Shown: one piece after another, positions 12,801-18,751 of the stretch
Layout: every line of letters starts with the position of its first letter
Numbering within the stretch: position 1 is the first letter of the stretch
Source: Chrysomallon squamiferum
Lineage: Eukaryota > Animalia > Mollusca
Assembly (NCBI GenBank): GCA_012295275.1
Contig: CM022676.1
Location: 4,464,001-4,528,000, forward strand
Direction of reading: 5' to 3'
DNA: 64,000 nt
The notes under the pieces: generated by a model
Databases searched by the model: none
What the model saw: the letters and a program-made list of their open reading frames with translations, nothing else
What the model was told of the DNA's origin: nothing
Translations under genes and position numbers: made by a program

Positions 12801-15800
12801 ATATATATATAGATAGATAGATAGATAGATAGATATAGATAGATATAGATAGAGAAATAGATAGATATGTGCAATGTAAACTATATGCATGTATGCAAGT
12901 ATGAATATGTATAAATATATATCTATGTAAGTGTGTTTTTATATATGTATGTATATATTATGTATATATGTGTCCATCTGTGTGTATTTACGTGCGTATG
13001 TGTGTGTGTGCTTATGTAGTATGTGTTATGTAGTATGCATATGTTCATGTTTGTTACAGAAGACATAATTAATAGTAATAAAAGTTACCGTTTTAACTGA
13101 AGATAACTTAACTATAGCAAACAAATAATTACCTACTCTCTGAAGATATATTAATAATAGCAAATACAAATTATTAATCTATCTGAAGAAGTATAATTAA
13201 TAAACAACTCAAAACAAGTTAAGGTCGAAGGCATTCTTAAAATTAATTTTTTGGAAGCATCTTTTTTTTTTTTTTTTTTTTTTGAGGGGGCAGATAGGGT
13301 TAGAATAACAACCTTTGTGTCGTCATCTGGACTAAAGACATAAGGGTCATGCAATCATTTCCCTTATATTTCGAATTTTAAAAATTAACTCAGATTTCCT
13401 TTTCATGGAATTCAAGCAAAAACGTACAGTCAGACTTAACAGATTCGCTCGCATTCACCGGCGTAGACGTCAAATCCAGCGGAGCATATCATAGATGAAT
13501 CACAGGACTTCTCTAGCTGAGTGATGGGCGGGCTCTTGTTTACCTTCGTCATGGAATTAGATTTGTTGATGTTAACGTTGTTCAGCATCTACCAGTTGGA
13601 GGAGAAAGTGGAATGGTGTGAGTAGGCGCACCCATCAATCACAGAACCCTTCTGTAGATCATTAATGGAGCTTGGTTCCATGACGACAACCCACGATTCC
13701 ATCGTGCCAGGGTAGTGACCAATTTCCTGCAGCAGCAAAACGTTCAGCTCTTGCCTTGTTAGGTCGGATGGACTATGACGATCACAACATGTCCATGCCG
13801 TCAACTTCAACACCTGGCTCAGCAATTATTGCAGAATGACAAATGATTCCTCAGTTTTAGTTCCAGCGCCTGGTTAATAGCGTGTGCCAACGTTGTCGAG
13901 AATGTGTGAGTGCTAATGTGGGCTACACCAGTTACCATTTCTGGAGATGCATGACTTTCTCCATCTGGGTAGTAAACTAGTTTCCAAGCAAAGGTGTTTT
14001 TATTTTTTGTTTCTTGGTTTCGAGAGATCAAATAAACAATTTGTCATTAGTCGTCAGAATTTCTGCATATCAGCTTATCTTTATTTGCACAAACGTTTTT
14101 GACCATTAACTTATTTTGAGTAGTATATAATAACTTAATCTCACGTTTTTATTTTCATTAATGAATTTTCAGGCCCTGTAGAAGACAGCAGTCAGTTTGG
14201 AAAAGAATTTGGCAGCGGTTTTGGAAGTTTCCTTGTTCTGTCTGTTATCATTGTCATTGTCGTTGTTCTCTACGTCCGAAACAAACGAAGTATTTATTTA
14301 TTTGTTTGTTTGTTTTGTTTGCTTCTTTCTTTCTTTCTTTCTTTCTTTCTTTCTTTTTAATTGATTATTTTTATTTTATTTTCTATTCTTTATTTATTTA
14401 TTAATTCATCCACTTGATCGTTCGTTCATTTATTCATAGCTTCATACTAATGTTTGTTTGTTCTTTGTATCTTTATTTTTTTCTATGTTCGTTTATTTAT
14501 TTTATTATGTATTTTAATTACACTTACCCATAGAGTAAAGGGGAGATAAATCAAGATTACATTACACAATTACCTTACACAGAGTAATCAAACCTGTTTT
14601 TGTGACCACCTGTGTATTTCAACCACCTGATAATGACATGGCTGAGGTAAAAAATGATGTCTAAGAACAAGAACATTTAATGATAAATTTAATTCTAGAC
14701 AGGCATAATGCTGAAAATGTTTCATGACTATGTCAGTATTCAGGTAGAGTGATTTAAGAACATAAGTATACTGTACACATAGAAATAGCTAGTATCAGTG
14801 TGACTACTACTACTACTACTTCATCCTACTAAAACTATTACTACACTACTTTGCTCATGATGATGATAAGGTTATTATTATTATCATTGTTGTTGTTGTT
14901 GTTATTATTATTTTTTGTTGTTTTTATTATTATTATTATTATTATTATTATTATTATTATTATTATTATTATTATTATTATTACAGCAGAAAAGAACTCA
15001 ACTTGGAACCAACAAAGGTAAATTAATTTATACTTTTTTACTATTTTTCTTTCCGTAAAATATAATTCATGTGCTTATGTGCATCTGTCTAAATGTGCTT
15101 ATGTATATCTCTATGTATTTTGTGTGTATATATATATATATGTATATATCTATGTATATATGTATGTATGTATGTGTGTATGTATGTGTGTATGTGTGTA
15201 TGTGTGTATGTGTATGTATGTATGTATGTGTTTGCATTCTTTTGCTGATTCTCGGATTATTGCATCAATCCATATGTAATATATTTTATTTACGTTTGCA
15301 ATTTCACAATCAGCAATGTGCATCAAAATACAGAGAATTCACATTCTTCTCTAGAGGAAAGAGGAAATGACGTCCCAGATGACGTCTTATTGCCTGGTGG
15401 TAAGTGAACTGATATTAATAAATGCTAAAGAAGAAAACGAGTATAGTTTGTTAACTATACGCTTATTCAGACAATTTCACGAAAAAAAGAAATCCCATAA
15501 ATATATACATACATACATACATATATATAAACATATATACATACATACATACATATATATATATATATATATATATATATATATTTATACATACATATAT
15601 ATATATATATATATATATATATATATATATATATATATATATATATATATATATATATATATAGACAGATACAGATAGATAGATAGATAGATTTTGAGAA
15701 AAACTACATTCTAAATATGAACGAGATAGTTTTATATATCTTTGTCTAGAAGTGTCTTTGTATGAAATGTTAAAATTTTTCTAGATTTGAAAAGATACAT

Positions 15801-18751
15801 TTCGTAAATGATTTTGAAATAGCTGTAAAATATGACACACAGACACACTCTTAGATCGATGTATATGTATGTATCTATGTATTTGTGTATTTATATATAT
15901 ATATATATACACAAATTAGGACGATTATTATTTTCTCCGCACATCACAATTTTTAAATAAAACAAAACATAATTTCATTCCATGATTCAGATAATCAGAC
16001 TGCACCAGCAACAGAACTTCAAGATTCAGAGAATTCTTCTCTAGAGGAAAGAGGATATGAGTCCGCATATCTCGTCTTAATACCTGATGGTAAGTGAACT
16101 GATATTAATAAATGATAAAGAAGAAAACGAGTATTGTTTGGTAATCATACGTTTATTCAGACACTTTCACGAAAAAAGATAGAAGATAGATAGATAGATA
16201 GATAGATAGATAGATAGATAGATAGATAGATAGATAGATAGATATTTCTTTTCCGGTAATGAATGGTTTATATATAAGGTGAGAATTCCTTATCCGAAGT
16301 GTTTCTGAATTTTCTGAATTTTTGGATTTCCGATTTGATGAGTAAGCGTTAAAATAGAAACATTCTAAATACTAATTCCATTTATATTTCATATACAGCT
16401 TAAGTAAATAGTTATTTTACGTTAAAATTGTTTTAAATGACAAATGACCCATCATTACAATTATATATTAATTAATACGTACATCGGTACATACAGACAT
16501 AAGTACATTACAGATTTACATACACACACATACATAGCTTACAGGTAAACAACGATATTTTGGTCTTATTAATATATGTGTAAAAACTTGTGTTTGTCAA
16601 TTAATTCACTATAAGGTACAGAAATATATACATAGATACATACATACATAAATACATACATACATACATATATATATATATATATATATATATATATATA
16701 TAAAGAATGTATTTTCACTTCGTTTTTTTGTTCCGAAGTGTTACATGTTTAACAGATTTTGAGAAAGAATAGATTCTAAATATGTTCGAAATAGTTTTAA
16801 GTCGATTAATAAACGTGTTTGTGTAGAAGTCTCTATGTTTGGAATGTCAAAATGTTTTCGGATTTCAAAGAGAGACACTTTGTAAATGATTTTGAAATAG
16901 CTGTAAAATATAATATAAACAGTCACATCCACAATCTTACATCGATGTATATTTATGTATCTATATCTGTATGTATGTATCTATGTGTTTGTGTGTGTGT
17001 GTGTGTGTGTATATATATATATATATATATATACACACGTTAGCACGATTATTGTTTTCTCCGCACATTACAATTTTTAAATAAAACAAAACATAATTTC
17101 ATTCCACGTTTCAGAAAATCAGACTGCACCAGCAACAGAACTTCAAGAATCATGGAATTCATATTCTTCTCTGGGAGATAGAGGATATGAGTCCGCATAT
17201 GACGTCTTAATACCTGATGGTAGGTGAACTGATATTAATAAATGATAAAGAAGAAAACGAGTATTGTTTGGTAATCATACATTTATTCAGCAACTTCCAC
17301 GAAAAAAGAAACAAGAGGGATAGATAGATAGATAAATAGATAGATAGATATTTTTTTCCGTTTATGAATCGTATATATATAAGTTGACAATACCTTATAC
17401 GAAATGTTTCGGAATTTTCTGAACTTTTGGATTTTCGATTTGATAACCTGAAAATAGAAATATTCTAAATATTAATTCCATTTATATTTCATATACAGCT
17501 TAAGTAGATAGTTATTTTATGTTAAAATTGTTTTAAATGACAAATGACCCATCCTTACAATTACATATTAATTAATAGGTAGATCGGTACACACACACTT
17601 ACGTACGTTACAGATTTAGATGCACACACAGACATAGCGTTCATGAAAACAACGATATTTTAGTTTGATTAATATAGGTGTAAAACTTGTGTTTACGAAT
17701 TAATTCACTAGAAGGTACAGAAATATTATATATATATATATATATATATATATATTTATATTGCAAAGAATGTATTTTCTTTTCCTTTTGTTGTTCCGAA
17801 GTATTGGATGTTTTACAGATTTTGAGAAAGAATAGATTCTAAATATGTTCGAAATAGTTTTAAGTAGATTTATCAATGTGTTTGTCTAGAAGTGTCTTTG
17901 TTTGAAATGTTAAAATTGTTTTAGATTTTGAAGAGAGACACTTTGTAAATGATTTTGAAATAGCTGTAAAATATAGTATACACAGATATATCCACAATCT
18001 TACATCGATGTATATTTATGTATCTATGTATGTATCTATGTATCTATGTATTTGTGTTTGTGTATTTGTATATATACACAAACACACACACACACACACA
18101 CACACACACACACACACACGTTAGCACGATTATTGTTTTCTCCGCATATTACAATTTTTAAATAAAACAAAACATAATTTAATTCCATGTTTCAGATAAT
18201 CAGACTGCACCAGCAGCAGAACTTCAAGAATCATTGAATTCATATTCTTCTCTAGAGGAAAGAGGATATGAGTTCGCATATGACATCTTAATACCTGATG
18301 GTAAGTGAACTGATGTTAATAAATGATAAAGAACAAAATAAGTGTTATATGCTAATCATACACTTATCAAAAGAAAAAAACAAGGTTATCTTACTGTTAT
18401 GATGTACAAAGAATGGGAACATGTCATACATATATAGATAGAGAGGAAGATAGATAGATAGATTATAAATCGTATATATATATAAATATATAAGTTGACA
18501 AACCCTTATTCGAAATGTTTAAAATAGAAACATTCTCAATACTAATTTCATTTATGTTTCATATACACCTTAACTAAATAGTTATTTTATGTTAAAATTG
18601 TGTTTGTGTGTTTATATATGTGTGCATATACACACTATAGCACGATTATTGTTTTCTCCATACCTCACAAGTTTTTATAGAAACGAAAATTTCATTGCAT
18701 GTTTCAGATAATCAGACTGCGCCAGTGGATGTACAAGATACAGAGATGTGA
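9835..18751 (+). CDS. IgSF receptor gene B: leader, V-like Ig, disrupted C2 exon, membrane-proximal Ig, TM, multi-cassette Tyr-motif tail
   Basis: Exons 9835-9892, 10678-10989, [11604-11863, frameshifted], 12288-12566, 14173-14289 ([29 protein letters not shown]), 14987-15017, 15314-15399, 15991-16089, 17115-17219, 18196-18300, 18708-18751. Skipping the bracketed exon gives an open 411-aa frame. Confidence 0.7.
11604..11863 (+). pseudogene. Frameshifted C2-type Ig exon within gene B
   Basis: 260 nt versus 261 nt for the paralogous exon at 24168-24428. 1-nt deletions near 11655 and 11816 and one extra base in the A-run near 11830; in-frame TGA at 11723-11725; splice sites intact. Confidence 0.7.
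13201..14127 (+). mobile_element. Degenerate, internally deleted Tc1-family DNA transposon in a gene B intron
   Basis: Imperfect TIRs (TAAACAACTCAAAACAAGTTAAGGTC at 13201; GACCATTAACTTATTTTGAGTAGTATA at 14101). Interrupted transposase motifs [42 protein letters not shown] and [23 protein letters not shown]. Absent from the paralogous intron of gene C. Confidence 0.85.

Follow-up and report, generated by a model that had tools for sequence, protein, structure and literature searches.

Tandem duplicates of a tyrosine-motif last exon in a predicted immunoglobulin-superfamily receptor gene of Chrysomallon squamiferum: a tuned array or a drifting one?

Introduction

A stretch of 64,000 nucleotides (nt) from the mollusc Chrysomallon squamiferum (assembly GCA_012295275.1, contig CM022676.1, positions 4,464,001 to 4,528,000 of the forward strand) contains a gene, called gene B here, that is predicted to encode a receptor of the immunoglobulin (Ig) superfamily. 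"The window" will refer to the whole of this stretch, and coordinates count from its first letter. The cytoplasmic tail of the receptor is encoded by a row of similar exons, or cassettes, built around a pair of tyrosines resembling an ITAM, or immunoreceptor tyrosine-based activation motif, and the cassettes differ in how many of these tyrosines they retain. The question raised by the locus is whether the gradation is tuned, making the tail a signalling rheostat, or is what remains of duplicates in decay. I incline, though only somewhat, to the second answer: the last ITAM-like exon of the gene appears to have been copied in tandem together with its flank, the copies to have drifted without selection, and this copy of the gene probably not to be translated as far as the tail.

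The receptor gene and its tail exons

Gene B lies on the forward strand at 9835-18751 and is modelled in 11 exons, every border of which is AG/GT. Their order is signal exon, three Ig exons, transmembrane (TM) exon, a mini-exon of 31 nt, four cassettes (c1 to c4) and a short terminal exon (c5). The exons preceding the cassettes are as follows.

9835-9892, forward strand: exon 1, start codon and signal peptide with a phase-1 donor; the peptide is 93-94% identical to those of the signal exons of two relatives in the window, genes A and C
10678-10989, forward strand: N-terminal, V-like Ig exon, 312 nt, phase 1-1; Pfam Ig_3 18.2 bits, under the cut-off of 30
11604-11863, forward strand: Ig2 exon, whose 260 nt are not divisible by 3; TGA in frame at 11723; recognised by Pfam and by comparison with exon Ig2b of gene C
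12288-12566, forward strand: Ig3 exon, 279 nt, phase 1-1; 88% identical to Ig3 of gene C
14173-14289, forward strand: TM exon, 117 nt; a hydrophobic run of 21 residues, then basic RNKR
14987-15017, forward strand: mini-exon, 31 nt, phase 1 to 2; its AG/GT frame is kept at the homologous place in a gene C intron (22420-22390)

The tail itself consists of five pieces.

15314-15399, forward strand: c1, 86 nt, phase 2 to 1; remnant of a deletion and fusion, its motif tyrosines replaced by H and D
15991-16089, forward strand: c2, 99 nt; a 6-nt deletion removes the first motif tyrosine, while GYESA and SAYLVL are retained
17115-17219, forward strand: c3, 105 nt, donor GTAGGT; full YSSL-x8-YDVL
18196-18300, forward strand: c4, 105 nt; full YSSL-x8-YDIL
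18708-18751, forward strand: c5, terminal exon, 44 nt including TGA; a motif-less deletion derivative of a cassette, with AATAAA at 18763

With a signal peptide, Ig domains, a single TM segment and a cytoplasmic tail (from Pfam and the exon model), gene B has the parts of a type I Ig-superfamily receptor, of which the region considered here is the cytoplasmic end. Two Ig exons pass their Pfam cut-offs: Ig2 of gene B, read in its shifted frame (Ig_3 30.7 bits, cut-off 30; Ig_2 28.3 bits, cut-off 27), and the first Ig exon of gene C (ig 23.7 bits, cut-off 21.8). The other Ig exons fall below. The protein-atlas clusters nearest to the first Ig exon of gene B are from molluscs, some of them V-set (score 0.96, to be taken as a lead only), and an AlphaFold2 model of the first Ig exon, made from a 3-row alignment, is unusable (mean predicted local distance difference test score 39.9). 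A search of PDB sequences with the first Ig exon of gene C returned only generic Ig matches (best E 0.00068, to NCAM2). A homologue search with the Ig3 exon among longer sequences gave no matches, and neither did an Rfam scan across the whole window. The intron between the Ig3 and TM exons of gene B (12567-14172) is 1606 nt long, as against 353 nt in gene C; the surplus DNA has a G+C content of about 35% and minus-strand open frames, and may be an inserted element.

An earlier note on this DNA, made from its letters, had placed the five tail pieces, short terminal exon included, exactly where I find them, and had described their tyrosines in the same way: none left in the motif of c1, the first lost from c2 and the full set in c3 and c4. 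Both c3 and c4 have, in addition, a third tyrosine beyond the motif pair (GYES/GYEF). The note had further taken c2, c3 and c4 for symmetric exons with intact splice sites, and this is borne out: all three have phase 1 at both ends, AG at the acceptor and GT at the donor (GTAAGT in the cassettes, except in c3). Because of these borders and phases and the lengths of 99, 105 and 105 nt, any subset of the three joins in frame, and any can be skipped.

Cassette c1 is in frame only jointly with the 31-nt mini-exon (31 + 86 = 117). That this pairing might be an over-fitted repair of the reading frame was considered and rejected, for gene C keeps the same 31-nt AG..GT box; in gene C the box and a second mini-exon of 47 nt together stay in frame.

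The cassettes are also tandem duplicates, as the note had held. Three exon-plus-intron units, with a repeat length of ~1.1 kb and delimited by repeat families and by the alignment of units 2 and 3, follow one another.

15991-17114, forward strand: unit 1, beginning with c2
17115-18195, forward strand: unit 2, beginning with c3
18196-18707, forward strand: unit 3, beginning with c4

The repetition is far above chance and covers exon and intron alike. One family (D5) has 4 copies of 165 nt that are 75-81% identical, another (D4) 3 copies of 254 nt that are 61-91% identical, and a third (D13) 4 copies of 45 nt, situated at the acceptors, that are 87-96% identical. The spacings are 690, 1124-1130, 1081 and 512-516 nt. 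As homologous neighbours with lengths that are multiples of 3 and with splice sites of their own, c2 to c4 (90-92% identical) have the marks of duplicated cassette exons. Pfam found no match on the cassette, and a profile of the five cassette peptides found none among 1.84 billion representatives, which, for a profile of 35 positions, is weak evidence of absence.

The tyrosine motif

The ITAM pattern as quoted in PMC9546547, Yxx[L/I]-x(6-9)-Yxx[L/I], fits c3, c4 and the corresponding exon of gene C (YSSL-x8-YDVI). Cassettes c1 and c2 do not fit. The location is that of an ITAM, since the cassettes come after the TM exon and are in frame with it under the exon model, in which splicing is predicted. 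A stricter form with an acidic residue, D/E-x-x-Y, is quoted in PMC6994640. There is no acidic residue at position -3 of the first tyrosine, which is preceded by WNS in c3, LNS in c4 and GSP in gene C; an E does stand at -3 of the second tyrosine in c2 to c4 (ESAY, EFAY). Taken by itself, the pattern Y..[LI].{6,8}Y..[LI] turns up often in DNA as AT-rich as the window: six-frame translation (127,996 residues) contains 281 stop-free matches, 38 of them not of low complexity. The motif carries weight because it directly follows the TM exon and is conserved in the paralogous gene C, not because of the pattern alone. The motif is ITAM-like, and it is reasonable to call the region, as the note did, a signalling tail.

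A loose pattern for the immunoreceptor tyrosine-based inhibitory motif (ITIM), [S/I/V/L]xYxx[I/V/L], is matched by c2 (SAYLVL), c3 (SAYDVL) and gene C (VPYDVI), and not by c4 (FAYDIL). The cassettes might accordingly form a switch, c2 recruiting phosphatases and c3 and c4 activating, such that the choice of cassette flips the sign of the signal. There is a precedent of sorts in the alleles and splice forms of Botryllus FcoR, which swap ITIM and hemITAM (PMC12582321). Six loosely specified residues are all that the match amounts to, however, and the same distal motif belongs to the ITAM-like pair in c3 and in gene C. A switch would also face every objection raised below to a rheostat, and I regard it as very improbable.

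Origin of the array

The history of the cassettes can be read by comparison with two other members of the family in the window. Gene C, on the reverse strand (26724-21649), is intact, with a signal exon, four Ig exons (gene B has three), a TM exon and one ITAM-like terminal exon. Its product has 465 residues, a length that rises to 491 if two conserved mini-exons are counted in. Gene A, the other member, is truncated. The parts that matter here are the following.

21649-21761, reverse strand: terminal exon of gene C, identified by alignment as the single-copy homologue of the cassettes, with the motif pair and a stop codon
22420-22390, reverse strand: mini-exon of gene C, 31 nt, conserved
22106-22060, reverse strand: mini-exon of gene C, 47 nt, conserved, encoding a tyrosine motif (..PVYYNV..)
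about 2955-4154, forward strand: gene A, with a signal exon, a first Ig exon (3595-3894), a motif-less last exon (4107-4154) and AATAAA at 4166

In alignment with the final exon and 3' flank of each of the three genes (for gene B, the final exon is c5), the cassettes and their downstream introns are homologous throughout. The end of a cassette, GGT AAG TGA, matches AAC AAA TGA of gene C codon for codon. A GT donor was thus gained two codons before the old stop, and the terminal exon therefore became an internal exon of phase 1-1. All four cassettes, c1 included, share this donor. The older form RGNDVP-DVL, that of gene C, persists in c1; c2 to c4 share the derived RGYESA. The upstream border of c1 was made by a deletion of about 365 nt, through which the ITAM-like exon, from its middle onwards, came to follow the first part of the 47-nt mini-exon known from the family. 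The last exons of genes B (c5) and A are the same exon with the motif part deleted. To judge from these alignments, an ITAM-like exon that was once terminal has been duplicated in tandem here, within a clustered family of Ig receptors.

The old ends of the exons are still visible. Behind each of the four cassettes the frame runs into a TGA 5 nt beyond the donor cut, and 12 nt further on comes an AATAAA.

15405, 16095, 17225 and 18306, forward strand: in-frame TGA after c1, c2, c3 and c4, homologous to the gene C stop codon
15417, 16107, 17237 and 18318, forward strand: AATAAA after c1, c2, c3 and c4, with the same geometry as in the real last exons of genes B and A

Since this geometry matches that of true last exons, a cassette could also serve as one. 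The cassettes might be composite exons, internal when the donor is used and last when it is not, with competition between splicing and polyadenylation setting where the tail ends. The homology of each TGA to the gene C stop codon fits such a use and at the same time weakens the case for it: a TGA that was inherited need not have been maintained for this purpose. AATAAA, for its part, is frequent at the local G+C content of 26-30%. I consider composite exons decidedly unlikely.

Tests for selection on the cassettes

The note had gone beyond description to propose that the graded tyrosine content is a rheostat, and had named dN/dS among the cassettes as a check. I ran this as the ratio of nonsynonymous to synonymous differences per site (pN/pS). 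The values are 1.07 for c2 against c3 and 0.88 for c3 against c4, and all 8 of the changes between c2 and c4 are nonsynonymous (0 synonymous), so that purifying selection has left no sign. By contrast, the Ig3 exons of genes B and C give a pN/pS of 0.40. Exons have diverged about as much as introns: between units 2 and 3 the identity is 0.899 for the exon and 0.886 for the intron, and the remaining pairs of cassette exons stand at 0.914-0.919.

How often intact cassettes would survive by chance was estimated by neutral simulation, starting from the real c3 or c4 and applying the divergence derived from the introns in 20,000 trials. All three cassettes retained AG/GT borders and an open frame in 0.19-0.30 of the trials, and at least two of them also retained all three tyrosines in 0.35-0.51. 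Since neutral drift yields intactness in 19-30% of trials, the intactness of the cassettes is no evidence of selection.

Whether the tail is translated

The Ig2 exon upstream is a further difficulty for a functional tail. Compared with Ig2b of gene C (261 nt), Ig2 of gene B (260 nt) has a 1-nt deletion after 11654, another at 11816 and a 1-nt insertion near 11835. If Ig2 is included, translation ends at the TGA at 11723, after about 163 residues and before the TM exon. Because Ig2 is frameshifted in this assembly, the tail is not reached unless Ig2 is skipped.

The frameshift and the array were compared with four DNA runs of the same organism, assembled into short contigs, over 9800-18530 (gene B up to, and excluding, c5). 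None of these contigs spans a whole unit, tells gene B from its paralogues or gives a copy number. A search for RNA runs matching 9800-18800 found none. In one run (X6), contigs amounting to 1941 of a depth of 2191.7 have an extra A at 11654, and the remaining 250.7 lack it. The deletion is therefore not only a slip of the assembly.

The array itself could be such a slip, in which the assembly has wrongly stacked the tail exons of several members of the family: the family is multi-copy, no contig covers a whole unit, and the best run contains only 0.45 of the sampled words. Against this, the units differ from each other by about 10%, colinearity of the introns extends over about 1 kb and follows the order that tandem duplication predicts, and every bin of the array is covered in all four runs. 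An artefact of this kind is highly unlikely.

The runs also contain, all four of them, a differently joined unit, in which 16401 or 17501 is joined to 18187 with the same 35 letters between. Variant units thus exist somewhere in these genomes, which speaks for the rheostat, by which c2 to c4 would be included or skipped in splicing, or vary in number among individuals, and so set the count of motifs. The exon structure would permit it: besides the free combination of c2 to c4 in frame noted above, the donor of the TM exon is of phase 1 and can join any of the three, as in gene C. The variant joints, however, lie in contigs shorter than a unit and are not assignable to gene B rather than to its paralogues, the cassettes are without sign of purifying selection, and Ig2 is frameshifted in this haplotype. 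The rheostat is, in my estimate, unlikely. Taking together the equal identity of exon and intron, the pN/pS values, the outcome of the simulation, the remnant nature of c1 and the frameshift in Ig2, I depart from the earlier note on this point, and infer that the graded tyrosine content reflects decay and divergence of duplicates, not tuning.

Several observations weigh against a drifting and untranslated tail. Ig2 is of phase 1-1, so that leaving it out gives an open frame of 411 residues, a complete two-Ig receptor with the whole tail. In three of the four runs every contig over 11654 has the extra A (by depth, 479.5 of 479.5 in X1, 856.1 of 856.1 in X2 and 135 of 135 in X3), and intact alleles of gene B may exist. 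This evidence is ambiguous, because at 11674 and 11691 these runs also have letters of the gene C type, a sign of admixed contigs from paralogues. The tests for selection have low power, with only 8-10 differences per pair. Finally, c2 to c4 do have open frames and AG/GT borders, and c3 and c4 do have all three tyrosines; a functional array would look alike. Even so, a drifting exon-duplication array in a fast-evolving cluster of immune-type receptors is still the likeliest reading.

A proposed course of events, and what would follow from it

Under the reading that I prefer, the family's last exon, bearing YxxL-x8-YxxL, would have been duplicated head to tail together with its 3' flank, and a GT donor beside the old stop codon would have turned the former last exon into an internal cassette. 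The duplicates would then have decayed: c2 by deletion of its first tyrosine, c1 by fusion and by substitution of both tyrosines, c5 by loss of the motif. In ITAM signalling, both tyrosines are phosphorylated by kinases of the Src family, and the tandem SH2 domains of a Syk-type kinase then dock on them. Should the tail be made after all, through skipping of Ig2 or from an intact allele, its phosphorylated YxxL pairs would be expected to dock a kinase of that type, and two full motifs would give a stronger signal, in the way that the T-cell receptor gains from its many ITAMs.

If expressed, the array would provide an invertebrate example of a receptor that has several ITAM-like motifs on a single chain, and a clear case of a terminal exon converted to internal cassettes by the gain of a donor beside its stop codon, and would bear on the evolution of ITAM multiplicity outside the vertebrates. 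The most far-reaching possibility is a mollusc immune-type receptor for which duplicated ITAM exons in the germline determine how many tyrosine motifs it carries and of what kind, by skipping, by ending after any cassette and by copy-number differences between individuals. If that were true, a single chain tunable by splicing would do what the T-cell receptor complex does with its many ITAMs; I think it quite unlikely. On present evidence the locus speaks mainly of birth-and-death evolution, with an inverted duplication, mosaic similarity at the 5' and 3' ends, truncated copies and a frameshifted exon, all of which are expected of such families.

Comparison with known systems

Duplicated symmetric exons can become cassette exons, and in PECAM-1 and CEACAM1 the skipping of small tail exons, backed by transcripts, removes ITIM tyrosines. 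The duplicated unit of gene B differs in being a former terminal exon with a gained donor, and its splicing is predicted. Each ITAM of CD3 zeta is split between two exons, whereas a cassette of gene B holds the whole motif. CD3 zeta and gene B are alike in having several ITAMs (ITAM-like motifs in gene B) in succession in one cytoplasmic tail. The comparison is one of architecture; CD3 zeta serves as a signalling adaptor and has hardly any ectodomain, whereas gene B has Ig domains of its own. The T-cell receptor has 10 ITAMs per complex, 6 of them from CD3 zeta, and their multiplicity amplifies the signal, according to PMC4428620.

Closer in phylogeny is CgIgR of the oyster Crassostrea gigas, whose ITAM binds Syk and drives ERK (PMC6994640). 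It shares with gene B a molluscan origin and a type I layout of Ig domains, TM segment and tail, the spacer within the tail ITAM being 8 residues long. Its Ig domains number five and its ITAM is single, and the portion of the paper used, which allows comparison by description only, describes no tandem motif exons. The Alr family of Hydractinia resembles the gene B family in being a cluster of fast-evolving Ig-superfamily receptors, with pseudogenes, some ITAM or ITIM tails and splicing that alters the tails (PMC9546547). It is cnidarian, however, with atypical Ig sequences and an Fn3-like stalk, and the available part of that paper describes no tandem array of motif exons. Botryllus FcoR (PMC12582321) comprises type I Ig-superfamily receptors in which ITIM and hemITAM replace one another between alleles and between splice variants. 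They differ from gene B in being from a chordate, in having a Sushi domain and in the means of switching, which are retention of an intron and point substitutions where gene B has duplicated cassette exons. In the literature searched, which comprised papers available in part, no description of a tandem array of ITAM exons in an invertebrate receptor was found.

The family in the window

An inverted duplication (7154-14406 against 23111-29395) has genes B and C as its arms, tail to tail. Their identity is 90-98% in the upstream regions and 5' exons, 79% in the TM region and 75-76% in the tail exons, a mosaic that suggests recombination or conversion among members of the family. Gene A is either a small secreted protein with one Ig domain or a fragment of a gene. 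In all four DNA runs the Ig and cassette bins exceed neighbouring unique pieces several-fold in word depth, which suggests more copies of the family elsewhere in the genome.

There is a second inverted pair in the window, 325-1278 against 19801-20786, with an identity of 88-94%. Orphan copies of an exon resembling the signal-peptide exon occur in the duplicated 5' flanks, at about 8314 on the forward strand and about 28245-28213 on the reverse strand, with no Ig exon directly after them.

The rest of the window

The window is AT-rich, with a G+C content of 22-36% over most of its length and many microsatellites. Near the receptor genes, at 30204-31037 on the reverse strand, is an open frame of 277 codons, rich in DYV and YVN tyrosine motifs, with a weak C-terminal SAM domain (SAM_1 20.7 bits, cut-off 23). 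A word-indexed search returned no homologues of this frame, and its nearest atlas cluster, "GRB2-associated and regulator of MAPK1", has a score (0.81) often reached by chance. It may encode a signalling adaptor beside the receptor cluster.

At 55665-64000 on the forward strand the G+C content jumps to 39-55%, and there are four long open frames rich in Q, S and P, of 487, 657, 754 and more than 472 codons. Pfam found no match on the four frames, which look like large exons of one gene. An intronless open reading frame at 42749-43600, also on the forward strand, encodes a DnaJ domain (DnaJ 82.1 bits). Its best match overall has 55% identity, and its full-length named relatives are from gastropods, with identities of 35-41% (Haliotis rubra 41%, Physella acuta 40%, Bradybaena and Candidula).

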